A stretch of DNA of 64,000 nucleotides from the NCBI GenBank assembly GCA_029220445.1, contig GCA_029220445.1_3666.1, one strand, 5' to 3'. This document shows, one piece after another, positions 2,633 to 33,162 of the stretch (position 1 is its first letter; each line of letters starts with the position of its first letter). The notes beneath the pieces are model-generated. The model was given only the letters and a program-made list of their open reading frames with translations. It did not search any database and was not told the DNA's origin. This DNA comes from a phage. Both the position numbers and the translations under genes were made by a program.

Positions 2633-3256
2633 ATGACCACCGTTAACATTACCACAGGTTGCAATTTATCTTTCGACGTGCTGACCGACGAACAAAAAGA
2701 AAAAGCTATTGAAATGGTCCGCGAAAGAGAAGAACACAGCGGAGAGGATTTTTTCGCAGAAAGTGTAATTGAATATTATAAAGAACAAGTTTTTCCAGAG
2801 TACGGCCTTGAAGATACCGATGTACATTGGTCCGGCTTTTGGTGCCAGGGTGACGGCGCGTCAATCAGTGCTGAAAACGTGGATTTAGAAAAATTCTTGC
2901 GTAAAGTAAAGGCCCTGACCAAGTTCCGATCAATTCGTCACTTGTTCGGCACAATGCACGATGGCGAGTTATCAGCCAGTATTGAACGCGACAAGTACAG
3001 CCGTTACAGCCATGAAAACACTGTAAGCGGATACATTGATACCACCTGGCTAGATCTGACCGCCAAACAAGAAAACAAAGTGGAAGACCTGGAAGAGCTG
3101 ATCACCGAGACGGTACGGGAGCTATCCCGCAAGGTTTACGTAGACCTGGAGGAGGCCTATCTAGAACAGTTCACTACCGAAAACCTGATCGGCCTTATCG
3201 AGGCCAATGATTGGCGGTTTGATGTGGATGAATATGGCGAGATGACTTTTTCATAA
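2633..3256 (+). CDS. hypothetical acidic protein (207 aa)
   Basis: ORF with GGAG RBS; acidic; no confident family assignment. Confidence 0.65.
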   Translation: MTTVNITTGCNLSFDVLTDEQKEKAIEMVREREEHSGEDFFAESVIEYYKEQVFPEYGLEDTDVHWSGFWCQGDGASISAENVDLEKFLRKVKALTKFRSIRHLFGTMHDGELSASIERDKYSRYSHENTVSGYIDTTWLDLTAKQENKVEDLEELITETVRELSRKVYVDLEEAYLEQFTTENLIGLIEANDWRFDVDEYGEMTFS

Positions 3257-26927: not shown

Positions 26928-27278
26928 TTACTGCAACAGTTTTTCAATAGCCGCTTCCATGCTGCTTGCAACAGCCTGAACTCGGATATTCATCTCTTCT
27001 TGGTGGATCAGCTCCTTAAGCTCTTTAATGGTAAATTCTTTAGAGAAACCTTCCACCATAATCTTGTGCAAGGCTTCTTGCGTGTCTACTTGCAAGAACT
27101 TTTCCAGTTTGTTGGCAGAGGCTTCTAAATCAGCCCGAATACGAGGGTCATCTGTGCGATTCAGCATTAGACGTAAGCCATCGAGATTAGTAGAAATAGC
27201 GTCTGCATGTTGAGTAACTAACCGTGGCAAAATGAGATCTACAAACTTATTAGCCAAATCGATACGTTCTTGTGTCAC
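26928..27278 (-). CDS. hypothetical helical protein (116 aa), GTG start
   Basis: GTG start overlaps stop of upstream small basic ORF. Confidence 0.5.
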   Translation of the reverse strand: MTQERIDLANKFVDLILPRLVTQHADAISTNLDGLRLMLNRTDDPRIRADLEASANKLEKFLQVDTQEALHKIMVEGFSKEFTIKELKELIHQEEMNIRVQAVASSMEAAIEKLLQ

Positions 27279-27388
27279 TGTTGCACCCCCTCTTCATCCT
27301 CATGATATTTCTTTTCGCGCTTGTGTTTTTTCTTAAGCTCAAGCGCAATCTCTTTTTTGTACGCCTTCTTCAAGGCTTTTTTAGCCAT
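27275..27388 (-). CDS. small lysine-rich protein (37 aa)
   Basis: Strong AGGAGG RBS 7 nt before ATG 27388; below ORF-track cutoff. Confidence 0.4.
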   Translation of the reverse strand: MAKKALKKAYKKEIALELKKKHKREKKYHEDEEGVQQ

Positions 27389-27450
27389 TTGGCACCTCCT
27401 CTGCTTTCATTACGCTAATTATAACCAACTTAACAAAGCTTTGTCAACAA

Positions 27451-27924
27451 TTAGTCAACCTGAACCCAACCATCTGCTGCCTTTTTAAACATTCTTTGGT
27501 TATCACTACCTCTGAAGGGTTTTTTGGTGGGGTTATCTTTTTCGTACTTACCATCCATAATGTAATCGACACTATCTTTAATGTAATCGGGAACCTCTTC
27601 AAACAAATACCCTGTGTACACCCAGATAGTTTTTGTGTTGCCGAAGTGTTCACGGATAGCGCGAATGATCGAGTACATACCATCAATATTGTAAGGCGCT
27701 AAAGGTTCGCCACCGCATAATGTAACGCCAGTAATGTGTTTCGGCTCTATAGAGTGAAGTATGCTCTCAATAGTGTCATTTGTTAACGGTTCCCCTTTAG
27801 CTGGTGACCAAACACTTTTGTTTTGGCAACCGACGCAGTGATGTGGGCAACCAGAACAGAACACCGTTGTCCTAATGCCTGGGCCGTCAACCATGCTACA
27901 CTCTATAATATTAACAACATTCAT
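27451..27924 (-). CDS. nrdG: anaerobic ribonucleotide reductase activating protein (radical SAM)
   Basis: N-terminus DGPGIRTTVFCSGCPHHCVGC with Cys cluster; 157 aa; next to nrdD. Confidence 0.8.
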   Translation of the reverse strand: MNVVNIIECSMVDGPGIRTTVFCSGCPHHCVGCQNKSVWSPAKGEPLTNDTIESILHSIEPKHITGVTLCGGEPLAPYNIDGMYSIIRAIREHFGNTKTIWVYTGYLFEEVPDYIKDSVDYIMDGKYEKDNPTKKPFRGSDNQRMFKKAADGWVQVD

Positions 27925-28157
27925 TCCTTATCCTCTTTTAGGTAAGGATATTCAGGCCCACAATAAGCTCTATCCAAGAAAACAGCTTCTTCCCCTCTGG
28001 AATCAGTAGATCTATAATACCCATCACCATGGTAACTAACGAACCAGTGGCACCCATCATCGCTTTCTACTGTTGTGGCTCTGTCCGAATGAAAGATAAT
28101 TTCGTAATCCTTACCGAATGTAAACCATCTGTTAGCTTTTACACAGACACCTATCAT
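27921..28157 (-). CDS. hypothetical protein (78 aa)
   Basis: ORF between homing-endonuclease-like gene and nrdG. Confidence 0.45.
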   Translation of the reverse strand: MIGVCVKANRWFTFGKDYEIIFHSDRATTVESDDGCHWFVSYHGDGYYRSTDSRGEEAVFLDRAYCGPEYPYLKEDKE

Positions 28158-28477
28158 AAGGAACCTCTCTTCTGTGATGTGCTTCTATTCAAGATAAACC
28201 TATAAAAGTCCATTTGATGAAGCCGTATAACTTTTTATACTTACGCTTCAGTGCTAACAATTTTATCTTGATTTTCTTGATAGATTTCCGCATTTCGACC
28301 CCTTATGCTTATAAGTACTCCGCATCGCATTCAGGGCAATGACAAATAAAATCGTCCAGTGCCTTGCACCAACGAAGATTGCAACGACAACCACACTTGC
28401 AAATTTTATAAATACCTGATGACATACTGCACCTCCTTAGTTAATAGCATGTTTAAGATATGCATATCTTTCTACAA

Positions 28478-29605
28478 TCATTTACCACAAATCTTCTTGT
28501 ATACCTCTTCTACCGTGTCAAACACTTCAGGCCTGTAGTAGAAAAACTCAGTGCTACCGTCAAATTTTACAGGAAAGTTTATTTTATACTTGCTGAAGGC
28601 CTTATGCACAGATTTTTCTAAATCTGCCATGTTTTGAGTTGATCCTTCCCACGTTTTCGCCAGGTAGAGATCATAAATACCTGCCCCTGCCCTTTTGGCA
28701 CTTTTCAATATCCTATCTTTTCTCTCTTCGACACTGACGCTAATACCGATCTTCATAAGTGTTGGTACTTCTAAGTCATCAACCATAATGTAAAGTTTGC
28801 CGTGATTGTACGATAAAAAGCCGTAGTTAGCACATCTAGGGCACCCATGTCCTTGCTTGAGCCTAATAGGAGCAGGAGACCATTCATAATCACAAATCTT
28901 ACATCTACATAATACTTTTGCACTACCGTTTTTAATTTTTCCAAGCACTTTAATACTTGGATTGACAACCTTTATATGCCCTACCCATTCCACATGGGAT
29001 CTCTTTGCATTGCCTTTACATCTAGGACACCCATGCCCTCGTTTAAGATGGGATGGTCTTGCTAGCCATTCATGACTGCAAATTTTGCATCGTGCCAATA
29101 CTGGTGTATCGCTATTTTTAACTCTTTCTACTATTTCAATATATGTATTTTTCTTCGTTATGTCCTCGACCCACTCGGTATGGGCTATAGCTCTGCTTTG
29201 TGCGAATTTTAGCTTGCCGCATCTAGGGCACCCATGTCCTTGTTTAAGAAGATAAGGCATTGCTGACCATTCATGACTGCAAATTTTGCAGCGGCACGGC
29301 ACTTTTGTTCTGCAGCTTATTATTTCTCCAATCACTTCGACATAAGGATTGACCTCTTGGATAACATTCAACCACTCCTTGTGTGGTATAATGTGGCTTT
29401 GTGCCATTTTTAGCTTTCCACATTCCCGGCAGCCTCGTCCTGCAAGGTGTTGGTGGGTAGCTTGTTCAAATTCTCCATGATATGGGCAGATAATTATAAC
29501 CTTGGTGCAGGCATTTACATACTCAACCTTAGAGTAATCATACTTATCTCCATGAACTGCTTTTGCCTTCTTTATAAACTCATCTGTTGTAAGTTTTCTG
29601 GACAC
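28478..29605 (-). CDS. putative free-standing homing endonuclease-like protein: four tandem zinc-ribbon repeats plus C-terminal GIY-YIG-like (T5orf172-type) domain
   Basis: Repeats CPYHGEF...GRGCRECGK / CKICSHEW...GHGCPRCGK x3; C-terminal GKLYIM...KIGIS...R block; inserted between nrdD and nrdG. Confidence 0.6.
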   Translation of the reverse strand: MSRKLTTDEFIKKAKAVHGDKYDYSKVEYVNACTKVIIICPYHGEFEQATHQHLAGRGCRECGKLKMAQSHIIPHKEWLNVIQEVNPYVEVIGEIISCRTKVPCRCKICSHEWSAMPYLLKQGHGCPRCGKLKFAQSRAIAHTEWVEDITKKNTYIEIVERVKNSDTPVLARCKICSHEWLARPSHLKRGHGCPRCKGNAKRSHVEWVGHIKVVNPSIKVLGKIKNGSAKVLCRCKICDYEWSPAPIRLKQGHGCPRCANYGFLSYNHGKLYIMVDDLEVPTLMKIGISVSVEERKDRILKSAKRAGAGIYDLYLAKTWEGSTQNMADLEKSVHKAFSKYKINFPVKFDGSTEFFYYRPEVFDTVEEVYKKICGK

Positions 29606-29671
29606 TGCTGAACCTTCTTAGCTCTAATCTTTGAACTAAGTGTGCCACATCCTTGTGGCTTTTGTCAAGTA

Positions 29672-31795
29672 TCAGCAACCACAACTTCCGTAGTGCTTAA
29701 CCCGTTCTATAACTTCCGCTTGCTTACCTTTATTGTAAGGACGGGAGTTAGGACTGGAAAGGTATCCAGACACTCTTCGGATCACTGAGATATATTGTTC
29801 ATCGTGGCATCCGCACGCAGGGCAGCAGAACCCTTTAGCTGTTGCACTGAACTCACCAGAGAAACCACACTTGAGACATTTATCCACAGGTTGGTTAATA
29901 CCAAAATACATAATGTGTTTATACCCGAAGTCAACAAGAGCCTCTAAAGCATCAAGGTTGTTTTTCAGGTTAGGTGTCTCTACGTATCCGATGTTGCCAC
30001 CGGAGGAGATCATAGCAAAACCTTCCTCATACTCCCACTTATCAAAAGGAGAGCTATTGATCCATACTGGCTGATGGAAACTGTTGGTGAGATATTCATG
30101 CTCGTGCTTTAACACTTCTGGATATTCACGATCCAGACAGGTTGCAGCTTTATAGCATAGACTCTCAGAAGGAGTGCCGTACAAGCTAAATGCTAGTCTA
30201 CTTTCCTTCTTGTATCGCTCACAAGCATCTCTCATGTGCTGAAGGATTCCAAGAGCTAAAGCCTTGTCACCTTCTCTGCCCAAAATCTGACAGGTTTCAT
30301 ACACACCAATGTACCCAATGCTGATGGAAGCGTACCCGTCATAGAAGAGTTTATCAATACTCTCTTCAGGGTCCAGGCGAGCAAGAGCGCCTTCACACCA
30401 CATGATAGGGTTCTGCCCTGCCTTTGTCCCTTTTAGACGATTAACCCTTACAAGGTGAGCCTCGTATGCAAGATCCAGGTATTCGTCAAGAACTGCAAAG
30501 AAATCAACACCTTCCGTTTTAGCTTTTGCCGCAATCATTGGCAGGTTAAGGCTAACAACGCCTAAGTTAAATCTGCCAAGGTATTTCTCCTCGCCTGTTT
30601 CCAAGTCATTGTATTTGCTAAGAAAACTCCGGCAACCCATGCTCGTTACTTTACCATCTGTCGAGCCTGTCACTTTACGATTTAGTGGAACAGAAACAAA
30701 GTCAGGATAAATCCGCTCTGCAGAGCATTCCAGAGCTAATCGTTTCAAATCATAGTTAGGATCTCCAGGGTTCATGTTGACACCCTCTTCTAGGAAGAAC
30801 AACACTTTAGGGAACACAGGTGTGATACGTTCTTCACCAAGACCCATTTTGTGGACTTTCAAGTAGTTTTTGGTAATCATTCTACCAAAGACTGAGGTGT
30901 CCAGACCTAAACTTAATGTGATGAATGGGGTTTGCCCGTTGACAGAAGTTAACGTATTGATTTGATAGAGCAAAGTCTGCATGCTGTCAAATACGTCTTT
31001 ATCTGTCATCTGCATTGCAACAGTCTCAGCATCTGGCAACCAATGTTCCTGGCAAAATTTAAGGTTCTTCTCATAAGTCGCCTCAGCATACTGTGCCAGA
31101 TAATGATCAATATGGCTCATAGTCTGACCCCCATATTGAGCACTAGCTACCGCACTAGAGATTTGGCTAAGGATTGTTGTTGCAACCCCTATTGACTTCG
31201 GCTTACTGACATGGGCGTTACCAATGTTGAATCCGTTTTCCAACATATCTGGATAATTTACCAAACAACAGTTTGTTAACGGACTGATCAAGTAGTCAAG
31301 ATCATGCACATGGATGAAGCCTTTATTGTGCTCTTCTGAGACACGGTCTGGCAGGATCTGTGTTGATGCAAGGTGTTTGCTAAGGATGCCTGCAAGCAGG
31401 TCACGATGAGTGTGTACATGATTGGTAGGCTTATTTGCGTTTTCTTTTGTAAATTCATCACAAGTTCGATCCAAGAAGCCACTAATATCTGCAAGCAGTT
31501 TTCCACCTGCCTCTCTGTTATTATCTCTTGTCTGTCTATACTGGATGTATTCTCTGGCTGCACATTTTAAACCCATATCCATAAGAGCATCTTCAACAAG
31601 GATATGGATATTTTTTACAGAGATCGTGCACTGGTCGGTTGGTAGATTGTTAGCAACAACTTCATTAACCGCACAAGCGATCCGGTAAGCTTCTTCTTCA
31701 GTATGTCCAGACTCAAGTAAGGCGGACTCTGCCGCCTTGATCACCTTAATTCCGTTATAGACCTCTTCTCTACCGTCCCGTTTTACAACTTTCAC
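29672..31795 (-). CDS. nrdD: anaerobic ribonucleoside-triphosphate reductase (class III)
   Basis: 707 aa; C-terminal glycyl-radical motif RVSGY and Cys cluster; adjacent nrdG. Confidence 0.9.
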   Translation of the reverse strand: MKVVKRDGREEVYNGIKVIKAAESALLESGHTEEEAYRIACAVNEVVANNLPTDQCTISVKNIHILVEDALMDMGLKCAAREYIQYRQTRDNNREAGGKLLADISGFLDRTCDEFTKENANKPTNHVHTHRDLLAGILSKHLASTQILPDRVSEEHNKGFIHVHDLDYLISPLTNCCLVNYPDMLENGFNIGNAHVSKPKSIGVATTILSQISSAVASAQYGGQTMSHIDHYLAQYAEATYEKNLKFCQEHWLPDAETVAMQMTDKDVFDSMQTLLYQINTLTSVNGQTPFITLSLGLDTSVFGRMITKNYLKVHKMGLGEERITPVFPKVLFFLEEGVNMNPGDPNYDLKRLALECSAERIYPDFVSVPLNRKVTGSTDGKVTSMGCRSFLSKYNDLETGEEKYLGRFNLGVVSLNLPMIAAKAKTEGVDFFAVLDEYLDLAYEAHLVRVNRLKGTKAGQNPIMWCEGALARLDPEESIDKLFYDGYASISIGYIGVYETCQILGREGDKALALGILQHMRDACERYKKESRLAFSLYGTPSESLCYKAATCLDREYPEVLKHEHEYLTNSFHQPVWINSSPFDKWEYEEGFAMISSGGNIGYVETPNLKNNLDALEALVDFGYKHIMYFGINQPVDKCLKCGFSGEFSATAKGFCCPACGCHDEQYISVIRRVSGYLSSPNSRPYNKGKQAEVIERVKHYGSCGC

Positions 31796-32070
31796 TTTTT
31801 CTCTCCAAAACCATTCTTAACAAAAGAGATGAAATCGTCGGCACCGCCTATATGGACACTTTCAAGATTGCTTTCTAAGAAGATCTGCGGCAACGTTCTG
31901 GGTACGATTGGACTGCACTTCTCAATAAGCTCTTCTTTTGTGTAACCCTCGCCAAGTGTCTTATATACAAAAGGCAGACCTTTACTGACTGCAAATTCTT
32001 TTGCTCTTACACAATGTGGGCAGTTATCTTTACCGTAAATAATAAAGAAAAAAGATTTTTCACAGCTCAT
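31792..32070 (-). CDS. glutaredoxin/thioredoxin-like redoxin (92 aa)
   Basis: CPHC active-site motif in IYGKDNCPHCVRAK; between nrdB and nrdD. Confidence 0.7.
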   Translation of the reverse strand: MSCEKSFFFIIYGKDNCPHCVRAKEFAVSKGLPFVYKTLGEGYTKEELIEKCSPIVPRTLPQIFLESNLESVHIGGADDFISFVKNGFGEKK

Positions 32071-32073
32071 GTA

Positions 32074-33162
32074 TTAAAACTCCCAAATTTCTTCTTCAGC
32101 GTCATTAACAGTTGTGTTGACGCGGTAGTCAGTGTTCGACATTTCTTGGTTCGCCGTCTGTTGCAATGAAGGTTTCATCCACACCTGCATAAACGGTAGA
32201 GGGTCCTTTGTTGGCGGCACAAAGTCTTTGTCGATGCCGTAGTAATCATAAATCGGTGAGCAGTTATAGTCAACCCATTCTTTAAGCAACGGTGAGTTAA
32301 GACCTATAATCGCTCTTCCTTCGCTGAAAATATAGTCACTCCAACCGTACTCTTTGGTTCGTACTTCATCAAGAATCTCTTTTAACTCCCCTTTTATCTC
32401 AAGGAAGCTTTTCTCCCATGCTGGATCATTAAGCAGGATATCAATGATGGCAAAATCACCTTTCGAGTGTAGCATTTCGTCAAGCATGATTTTTTGAACA
32501 AGCTGCGCCACCTGAACAAAAATACCCTGTTCAGCTACTGCGAAAGTGCATGCAAAACTTGCAATAAACTCAATACTTTCCAGAGCTAAAAGTGCAAAAA
32601 GCGCTCTAAGAATGCATTTCCGCACAATATCTTCTTCAACACTAGAAGGATCCAGTCGGTATTTTGCACCAATAACCTCAAGCTCTTGCATGTACTTGAC
32701 AATAACGCCAGATCTGCTCAGAACGTTTTGGTTTTCCTGAATCTCTTCTATAATCTCACGGGCATTGGGGAGGCATTGTCTAACAATCTCTGAGTAAGTT
32801 AGTGCGTGAAGAACTTCAATCTCTGACTGTTTCATCAATAGAGTGAAAAGCTCACTATTAGTGATGAATGGTGAAAAGAGGCAGATGATCGATCTTGCCG
32901 CAACGCTATCAGCCTCCCATTGCCACATCAAGGTCTGCACCATTACATCATAAGTTGACTTGGAGCATGTTACAAAATCTGAAATAGATTGCGACAAATC
33001 CACTTCATCCTCTGCCCAGTCTTGTTCTTTTTGTTTTTTGTACAGTTCGAACAGTTGTGGATATTTTTTGTTGATAGAGTCGTACATACCCATTTGCTGT
33101 CCCAGAAACAGCGGATAGTCACCAGTTTTATGAGCGGTGTTCTCAGCATTAAATACAGCCAT
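32074..33162 (-). CDS. nrdB: ribonucleotide reductase class Ia small subunit
   Basis: Di-iron/tyrosyl-radical family by context and length; ATG 33162 with GAGGTAG RBS preferred over track start 33222; directly downstream of nrdA. Confidence 0.85.
   Translation of the reverse strand: MAVFNAENTAHKTGDYPLFLGQQMGMYDSINKKYPQLFELYKKQKEQDWAEDEVDLSQSISDFVTCSKSTYDVMVQTLMWQWEADSVAARSIICLFSPFITNSELFTLLMKQSEIEVLHALTYSEIVRQCLPNAREIIEEIQENQNVLSRSGVIVKYMQELEVIGAKYRLDPSSVEEDIVRKCILRALFALLALESIEFIASFACTFAVAEQGIFVQVAQLVQKIMLDEMLHSKGDFAIIDILLNDPAWEKSFLEIKGELKEILDEVRTKEYGWSDYIFSEGRAIIGLNSPLLKEWVDYNCSPIYDYYGIDKDFVPPTKDPLPFMQVWMKPSLQQTANQEMSNTDYRVNTTVNDAEEEIWEF

Follow-up and report, generated by a model that had tools for sequence, protein, structure and literature searches.

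A putative free-standing homing endonuclease gene of the T5orf172 branch in the spacer behind nrdD of an rV5-like coliphage

Results

The stretch of DNA analyzed here, which we call the window, comprises 64,000 nt of a phage (NCBI GenBank assembly GCA_029220445.1, contig GCA_029220445.1_3666.1). Our subject is a 375-amino-acid (aa) open reading frame (ORF) on its minus strand, at 28478..29605, among the genes for anaerobic ribonucleotide reductase (RNR). The source phage is a Vequintavirus, that is, an rV5-like coliphage, and 123 phage records match the region at 90–99% identity. On one side of the ORF lies nrdD (29672..31795; Pfam matches to NRDD, Gly_radical, and ATP-cone), with a glutaredoxin gene upstream of it, and on the other lies nrdG (27451..27924; radical S-adenosylmethionine match in Pfam). 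The ORF list confirms the reading frame, with GTG as start and TGA as stop. The GTG start is credible, as a Shine–Dalgarno (SD)-like AAGAAGG stands 7 nt upstream of it and the N termini of homologues line up with it at M-x-R-K-L-T-T-x-E-F. The product matches DUF4379, CapR, and T5orf172 in Pfam and the endonuclease families 559 and 681 in PHROG, and we argue below that the ORF is probably a homing endonuclease gene (HEG). It is intergenic, lying 66 nt past the nrdD stop and 52 nt ahead of the next ORF, and it stands alone, lying within neither an intron nor an intein. A tblastn search found no paralogue of it within the window. Current annotation is inconsistent: the gene is unannotated in phage ECML-10 and labeled "hypothetical," "zinc-ribbon," or "HNH" elsewhere, and related alleles are called "putative homing endonuclease" in WalterGehring and "GIY-YIG nuclease family protein" in SophiaRose.

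The gene occupies a discrete insertion. Mapping to rV5 by blastn, together with junction alignments, delimits a cassette of about 1.2 kb at 28443..29640, with boundaries good to ±6 nt; on both sides of it the window is collinear with rV5 by blastn mapping (27000–28442 and 29643–32100). An alignment of five empty sites shows that the cassette stands in place of about 19–23 nt of the empty site, CATATTATTGACACACAGTGAGC, whose rV5 form is CATATTGTTGGCACAGTGAAC; in the mapping to rV5, the replaced stretch measures about 16–20 nt. In the sense of transcription, the locus thus runs from the nrdD TGA through 30 nt held in common with empty sites, which include a hairpin (GCCACA-AGGA-UGUGGC, 29644–29659), into the cassette and then to the SD and ATG of a 38-aa ORF. 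Neither terminal inverted or direct repeats nor ends of transposon type were found around the cassette, and transposition is therefore unlikely. The spacer upstream of the cassette (GGATGTGGCACACT) imperfectly resembles the cassette's 3′ end (AGATATGCATATCT), but the resemblance was too short to be told from chance and was not used.

Occupancy of this site varies among close relatives. A 181-nt probe across the rV5 junction finds the uninterrupted, empty junction in 92 of 122 Vequintavirus records. The sequence-only reading, an earlier account made from the letters of the window, had proposed comparison with relatives lacking the insertion, and this count establishes that an insertion polymorphism exists; the gene is not shared by all relatives, nor is its product devoid of nuclease-family similarity, as the T5orf172 match described below makes plain. 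The allele of the window occurs in one phage record, ECML-10 (98.4% nt and 98.9% aa identity). Six other contigs of ∼135–139 kb, from metagenomes and the Sequence Read Archive, encode a protein of at least 99.7% identity, always between nrdD and the small ORF. The backbones of these six are unlike that of the window: They are without the genes gp110 and gp111, and HNH-containing insertions interrupt nrdD in them, at two different positions.

Related genes are found at this site in about 26 other Vequintavirus records, and what the genes have in common is mainly the 3′, nuclease-coding part. At least five alleles can be distinguished there, in which zinc modules of two types, A and B, are shuffled on a shared nuclease domain. 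The module array is A-B-B-B in the window and ECML-10, A-A-B in the naam type, A-A′-B in WalterGehring, A′-B-A in JEP1, A-A′-B-A in Mangalyan, and A-A-A′-A in SophiaRose. Beyond the Vequintaviruses, relatives at about 70% nt identity occur in lambdoid phages; one of these, mEp021, is unrelated to the phage of the window and joins six B modules to the same nuclease domain at about that level of identity. A database search returned 3,147 homologues at E ≤ 1e-10, many of them in Escherichia coli chromosomal contigs. As an aside on the relatives, about 20 MG0656xx records named "Campylobacter phage," with Campylobacter jejuni as host, are 95–97% identical to E. coli Vequintaviruses across the locus, and their host and name assignment looks doubtful.

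The N-terminal part of the protein is an array of four zinc modules. On the protein as a whole, Pfam reports DUF4379 ("probable treble-clef zinc finger"; 3.2e-16, 59.7 bits against a cutoff of 24.5, in three stretches) and CapR (PF21817; 2.8e-12, 47.1 bits against a cutoff of 24.2, with its best stretch in the third module). The first module, R1 (residues 5–64, 29414..29593, minus strand), is of type A, or CapR/DUF723-like; it carries the motif HGDKYDY...CPYHG...GCREC, with ligands C-x2-H and C-x2-C, and gives a weak DUF723 match over residues 27–63. The remaining three, R2 (residues 73–131, 29213..29389), R3 (residues 140–198, 29012..29188), and R4 (residues 202–260, 28826..29002), all on the minus strand, are of the DUF4379-like type B and share NP.IEV.G.I...CRCKICxHEW...GHGCPRC, with C-x2-C...C-x2-C as ligands. 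In R2 the core of this motif reads CRCKICSHEW...GCPRC. R3 contains the best DUF4379 stretch (residues 151–198) and, in a PDB sequence search, resembles the solved DUF4379 protein mt-SAF33 (6sga_Fd, E 3e-4). R2, R3, and R4 align with one another at z = 27–32 against shuffles (50–58% aa and 61–64% nt identity), and the module region shows periodic DNA repeats spaced 186/201 nt; the similarity of R1 to R2–R4 is remote, at a z of about 3.5. The sequence-only reading had described four ∼60-aa repeats with two Cys pairs each. All four modules are real, but they are not equivalent, falling into one plus three, and one of the pairs in R1 is C-x2-H.

Each module has a complete four-ligand zinc site (C40/H43/C59/C62, C106/C109/C126/C129, C173/C176/C193/C196, and C235/C238/C255/C258). 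All 16 ligands are intact. Residue conservation in the protein was read from an alignment of 29 full-length homologues of 44–57% identity, in which 12 of the 16 show no or almost no variation. The invariant positions include V36, C40, G58, C59, and C62 in R1; C106, C126, and C129 in R2; and C235, C255, and C258 in R4. An NCBIfam scan of the protein gave only subthreshold zinc-ribbon look-alikes (HypA and a thioredoxin-like family). PHROG 559 ("HNH endonuclease") and PHROG 681 ("endonuclease") both match strongly. We nonetheless rejected an HNH identity, since the PHROG 559 match covers the zinc modules only (residues 1–202 against profile positions 119–306 of 607) and the Pfam scan of the protein gave no HNH match; the label stems from another nuclease domain to which these modules are also fused.

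The C-terminal part, residues 266–375 (28478..28810 on the minus strand, stop codon included), is a T5orf172 domain of the GIY-YIG superfamily. The Pfam match (PF10544; 5.5e-11, 43.3 bits against a cutoff of 20) spans residues 272–372 and profile positions 4–100 of 101, and the related MUG113 model also exceeds its threshold (30 bits against 22.3). These matches bear out the C-terminal GIY-YIG-like block of T5orf172 type that had been read from the sequence. Pfam reported no match of the protein to GIY-YIG itself (PF01541), and the PDB sequence search of the protein returned no nuclease, mt-SAF33 being its sole result. In an AlphaFold2 model built from the 29-homologue alignment (mean predicted local distance difference test score 87, predicted template modeling score 0.49), the predicted T5orf172 fold agrees with the α/β fold of GIY-YIG nucleases; the low template modeling score is what would be expected of a string of independent domains. 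Invariant residues of the domain are Y272 (in LYI), K285-I-G287, R295, E330, H334, and E353 (in EFF). The ratio of nonsynonymous to synonymous substitution rates (dN/dS) for the nuclease domain is mostly 0.07–0.25 in pairwise comparisons, and 0.03–0.07 between the window and the copies in ECML-10 and in L015, one of the related loci compared here. The ORF is full-length and free of frameshifts in at least eight genomes or contigs. Thus, the nuclease domain is intact and under purifying selection, and the protein is probably an active nuclease.

The gene and its surroundings appear to have had separate histories. It is 99.1–99.8% identical to the copies in ECML-10 and in loci L015–L017, with adjoining flanks only 77–92% identical. 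Against ECML-10, the window shows about 10 differences in the 1.1-kb gene core (28575–29700), 24 in the adjacent 270 nt downstream, and about 30 in a 130-nt stretch of nrdD. Against L015–L017, identity is 99.7–100% from 28576 through the nrdD tail and 92.5% over 28441–28575. By comparison, naam, which bears a different allele, differs from the window at 1 position over 27764–28594 and at none over 29766–30361. The same gene is also found on both haplotypes of the nrdD patch described below and in backbones that differ in their introns and in gp110/111 content. Such patterns are those of a gene whose history is uncoupled from that of its flanks, which suggests horizontal movement. Within the T5orf172 coding sequence itself lies a recombination joint (28575..28595), to the left of which the sequence is naam-like (1 difference in 830 nt) and to the right of which it resembles L015 and ECML-10 (99.1–99.8%). 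Apart from K370R, the changes in the crossover tract are synonymous only. Most simply, this reflects a crossover at about 28575–28595 that joined an L015-like genome, with its A-B-B-B array, to a naam-like genome.

Sequence differences are also concentrated in parts of nrdD. In its tail the window equals rV5, with 0 differences over 29643–29773. In naam (positions 3026–3130 of locus L003) and JEP1 (locus L005), the tail equivalent to window 29672–29765 is recoded, and in naam the C terminus of NrdD is also altered and extended, with a true terminator after it. Upstream of the tail, a patch at 29774–29831, in the codons over the C-terminal zinc ribbon, exists as two haplotypes with 26 differences in 58 nt: CCPACGCHDEQY in the window, naam, JEP1, SophiaRose, and L015–L017, and VCPECGNHEEGT in rV5, ECML-10, WalterGehring, and Mangalyan. 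We considered this patch as an immunity tract for the allele of the window and rejected it because both haplotypes are found with the same gene and without any HEG.

Insertions of other kinds occur in and around the locus. The nrdD of the window is uninterrupted (707 aa). Many relatives carry insertions of about 0.8 kb with HNH endonuclease ORFs at no fewer than two positions of nrdD (for example, at window 30935/30936; loci L002, L004, L005, L006, and L015–L017), and those in WalterGehring and JEP1 are annotated as introns. Since several positions are used, nrdD is a multisite landing pad for mobile elements, and at those sites the window represents the "empty" allele. SophiaRose has a second gene of the "GIY-YIG nuclease family" just beyond phoH (1–414 of L007), where the window has none; with no paralogue in the window, the HEG load therefore differs at several sites in this phage group.

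Downstream, the insertion site is bounded by the 38-aa ORF (28309..28425, minus strand), which contains eight Cys residues (MSSGIYKICKCGCRCNLRWCKALDDFICHCPECDAEYL), is preceded by a strong SD, and lies outside the cassette. All relatives examined conserve it between nrdD and nrdG, and it is annotated in relatives and was called as a gene in L015–L017. Its labels vary from "hypothetical" to "ribonucleotide reductase" and "anaerobic NTP reductase," and it has no Pfam match; its product might be a small partner of anaerobic RNR that binds zinc or iron. The rV5 annotation places a different gene here, "gp109," a 75-aa ORF with a TTG start that overlaps the nrdD stop and would be disrupted by the cassette. 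We rejected gp109 because the 38-aa ORF with its strong SD is the one used by other annotations and gene callers. Farther on, 27921–28300 on the minus strand holds a 78-aa gp111-like ORF (PHROG 3249; "putative minor capsid protein" in rV5) and a 34-aa gp110-like ORF. This block is variably present, being absent from JES2013, ECP26, bov10K2, slur12, JEP1, SophiaRose, and L015–L017, and constitutes a second indel polymorphism of the nrdD–nrdG spacer. The claim that the gene interrupts an otherwise contiguous nrdD–nrdG pair consequently needs amendment. An intergenic cassette does follow nrdD, but the two genes are not contiguous even in phages with the empty site, where the 38-aa ORF and sometimes gp110 and gp111 separate them.

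The expression signals of the gene are modest. The spacer between nrdD and the gene, which forms its 5′ leader (29606..29671, minus strand), contains the 29644–29659 hairpin, a second 8-bp hairpin, a closing stem, and the AAGAAGG element. The closing stem pairs UGCUGA of nrdD with UCAGCA directly 5′ of the GUG start. The predicted fold of the leader RNA (29575–29680, minus strand) has a free energy of −33.6 kcal/mol (z = −4.4), a stability reached by 0 of 200 shuffles, and it is preserved in JEP1 and SophiaRose; no compensatory changes were seen across the four available leaders. A regulatory hairpin is only a suggestion from these data, and the fold could provide translational coupling or masking of the start. 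Coupling or masking by leader structure has been reported for some T4 HEGs. A promoter scan of the coding strand found no σ70-like promoter for the gene or for the downstream small ORF. In the 3′ untranslated region (28426..28477, minus strand), a perfect 16-bp palindrome, AAGATATGCATATCTT (28455–28470), begins 8 nt past the stop codon and is followed by the SD of the 38-aa ORF (TAAGGAGG). The palindrome is kept in the L015, naam, and JEP1 alleles and changed on one side in Mangalyan. Its predicted RNA fold, and that of the 3′ untranslated region, is no better than that of shuffles; it could instead be a site for protein binding.

Discussion

Our analysis indicates that the 375-aa gene is a free-standing HEG of the T5orf172 branch of the GIY-YIG superfamily, residing in the spacer after nrdD of an rV5-like coliphage; we give this reading a probability of about 0.78. 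Homing had already been suggested from the sequence, and the suggestion gains support from the polymorphism of the site, the uncoupling of gene and flanks, the conserved nuclease domain, and the lack of transposon ends.

The anatomy described above is shown by the sequence, and from it we infer how the element would act. The four treble-clef modules, arranged as A-B-B-B like beads on a string, would jointly read an extended DNA site, and the tethered T5orf172 domain would cut nearby by means of Tyr272, Arg295, and Glu353. In a cell co-infected by a relative without the cassette or with another allele, the break would be repaired from the HEG-bearing genome, which would copy the cassette together with a short flank. 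The target would span the spacer between nrdD and the small ORF, and insertion would itself destroy it. Such a target is the most economical guess because the nrdD tail of the window equals that of phages with an empty site and about 20 nt of spacer give way to the cassette. Transcription probably occurs by read-through from nrdD, with weak translation from a GUG set in a structured leader. Finally, since several alleles with reshuffled modules occupy one site, recombination between related HEGs appears to retool specificity, and the copy in the window would itself be such a recombinant.

Several considerations weigh against this interpretation. First, homing by T5orf172 HEGs is without experimental verification according to the survey of the family (PMC10448857), and we found no demonstration of it in the later T5orf172 literature. 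Second, the structure of the protein is a prediction, and the likely equivalence of Y272, R295, and E353 to Y6, R27, and E75 of I-TevI, and of E353 to E180 of Odn, follows from motif order and fold match rather than from residue-level superposition. Third, the proposed spacer target is conjectural. The cut made by a free-standing HEG often falls in a neighboring gene rather than at the point of insertion. Linked to the alleles of naam and JEP1 is an nrdD tail with 20 differences in 70 nt directly 3′ of the glycyl-radical motif, a dense recoding that is almost wholly synonymous; for those alleles at least, this suggests that the target lies in nrdD. The recoded tail has the look of an immunized or co-converted target and is a candidate target or immunity tract for the two alleles. 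Last, ordinary phage recombination, rather than nuclease-driven conversion, could account for part of the mosaicism around the gene.

The allelic diversity invites a more ambitious proposal, which we hold only tentatively and consider unlikely. The nrdD–nrdG spacer of Vequintaviruses may be an arena in which rival HEG alleles displace one another, with each module array reading a different nrdD tail or spacer and some alleles targeting the "immunized" flank of a competitor. The window would then record the takeover of a naam-type locus. In that case, the series of alleles would serve as a natural key to the modular DNA-recognition code of CapR/DUF4379 modules, in which module order sets the target.

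It is less probable still that the nuclease serves competition or defense, cutting another phage, a satellite, or a rival HEG allele, so that its patchy distribution would be that of an accessory weapon. Odn of phage ICP1, an anti-satellite weapon, shares this nuclease domain (PMC8263062), and the many homologues in E. coli chromosomal contigs would suit such a role. So would the replacement of one allele by another at a single site, as in the window, where the cassette sits in a naam-like backbone from which the naam module array and recoded nrdD tail have been displaced. However, HEGs also exclude competitor markers, so that a weapon is compatible with homing, and the DNA-binding part consists of generic HEG zinc modules rather than a domain borrowed from the target element, as in Odn. 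The defense-system models of PADLOC yielded only a marginal match (PDC-S57, E 0.0035), and no candidate satellite target was found, although none was looked for.

We regard as improbable, and rank below the weapon, a domesticated DNA-binding protein that has lost nuclease function and regulates the nrd operon or downstream genes in the manner of CapR or of I-TevI as a repressor. There is a precedent in CapR of PLE (an element akin to phage-inducible chromosomal islands), a repressor derived from the T5orf172 HEG family (PMC8096241). The cassette also lies on an element of the empty site that, read by eye, resembles a promoter (TTGACA-18 nt-CATATT), and the palindrome follows the stop codon. 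Yet the window scan missed this promoter-like element, and the annotation of the rV5 stretch examined does not list it; we therefore did not build on a cassette that splits a promoter. CapR has no nuclease domain, whereas the T5orf172 domain of the window is complete, with invariant catalytic-type residues and purifying selection, and a regulator that the phage needs would hardly be absent from about 75% of close relatives. Least probable of all is the remnant of a HEG that is decaying or inactive and is kept through hitchhiking: HEGs commonly degenerate once fixed (PMC10448857), and this allele is rare in sequenced phages and starts with GTG behind a structured leader, but the ORF is uninterrupted in at least eight genomes or contigs, dN/dS is low (about 0.1–0.2 across alleles in addition to the values for near-identical copies given above), and every zinc ligand and catalytic-type residue is intact.

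Taken as a homing endonuclease gene, the element may be useful in several ways. Cultivable E. coli phages are available with the site empty (for example, rV5 and several BASEL phages) or occupied (for example, ECML-10, naam, and WalterGehring) in backgrounds about 95% identical, which makes this locus a convenient system for a first experimental test of T5orf172 homing. With at least five arrangements on one nuclease domain at one site, and with linked changes in the nrdD tail, it also offers a compact natural data set on DNA targeting by zinc modules. Of some local interest are the allelic series of shuffled arrays at one site, the joint inside the gene, and the recoded nrdD tail of some alleles. 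More simply, the annotation of the gene in ECML-10 and elsewhere can be corrected.

It is useful to contrast this gene with the GIY-YIG elements of T4, among which are the free-standing HEGs SegA–G and the intron-encoded I-TevI; T4 also has MobE, located between nrdA and nrdB. DNA binding in I-TevI and the Seg proteins relies on NUMOD modules, a helix-turn-helix, or a single small zinc finger, unlike the array described here. Their nuclease domain is N-terminal, whereas that of the present protein is C-terminal (residues 266–375), which places it outside the I-TevI/Seg subfamily, although it would work much as those enzymes do. The sequence-only reading was right to call this domain order unlike that of I-TevI. 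It is not unusual, however, being the norm for T5orf172 HEGs (PMC10448857).

The closest parallels come from Vibrio phages and their satellites. Netter et al. 2021 (PMC8096241) found the zinc-finger DNA-binding module of CapR in a group of T5orf172 HEGs from ICP1, and demonstrated by electrophoretic mobility shift assays and Cys-to-Ser mutants that PLE CapR binds specific sequence and needs its Cys pairs to do so. The zinc module of CapR is homologous to that of the present protein (PF21817, 2.8e-12), but CapR is a repressor without a nuclease domain and the present protein keeps one. Barth et al. 2021 (PMC8263062) reported that Odn, a T5orf172 protein, cleaves DNA in vitro and that E180A abolishes cleavage; it is the only family member for which in vitro cleavage has been shown (PMC8263062). 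Odn (Gp88 of ICP1), an origin-directed nuclease, resembles the present protein in its C-terminal T5orf172 domain with conserved Arg and Glu. It differs in that its RepA_N DNA-binding domain derives from its satellite target and in its role as an anti-satellite weapon, whereas the present gene has generic zinc modules and behaves as a mobile gene.

More broadly, the survey of phage T5orf172 HEGs by Barth, Dunham & Seed 2023 (PMC10448857) found zinc fingers of the CapR/DUF723/DUF4379 type in 87% of them, often several as "beads on a string," with ribonucleotide reductase genes in 33% of their neighborhoods and modules that form degenerate DNA repeats and are swapped between HEGs. Its main text makes no mention of rV5-like phages, nrdD, or Escherichia phages. 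The gene analyzed here is thus a new example of a published family whose architecture, behavior, and preference for RNR genes were already described. It is closest in plan to gp174, gp165, and gp121 of ICP1 and to the HEGs of Vibrio phage Helene, which likewise join N-terminal treble-clef modules to a C-terminal T5orf172 domain. With these it shares variable presence, a location by essential genes, degenerate internal DNA repeats, and domain swapping. It is set apart from them by its Vequintavirus lineage and by a locus where no fewer than five module arrangements occur at one site and differences in the nrdD tail are linked to them.

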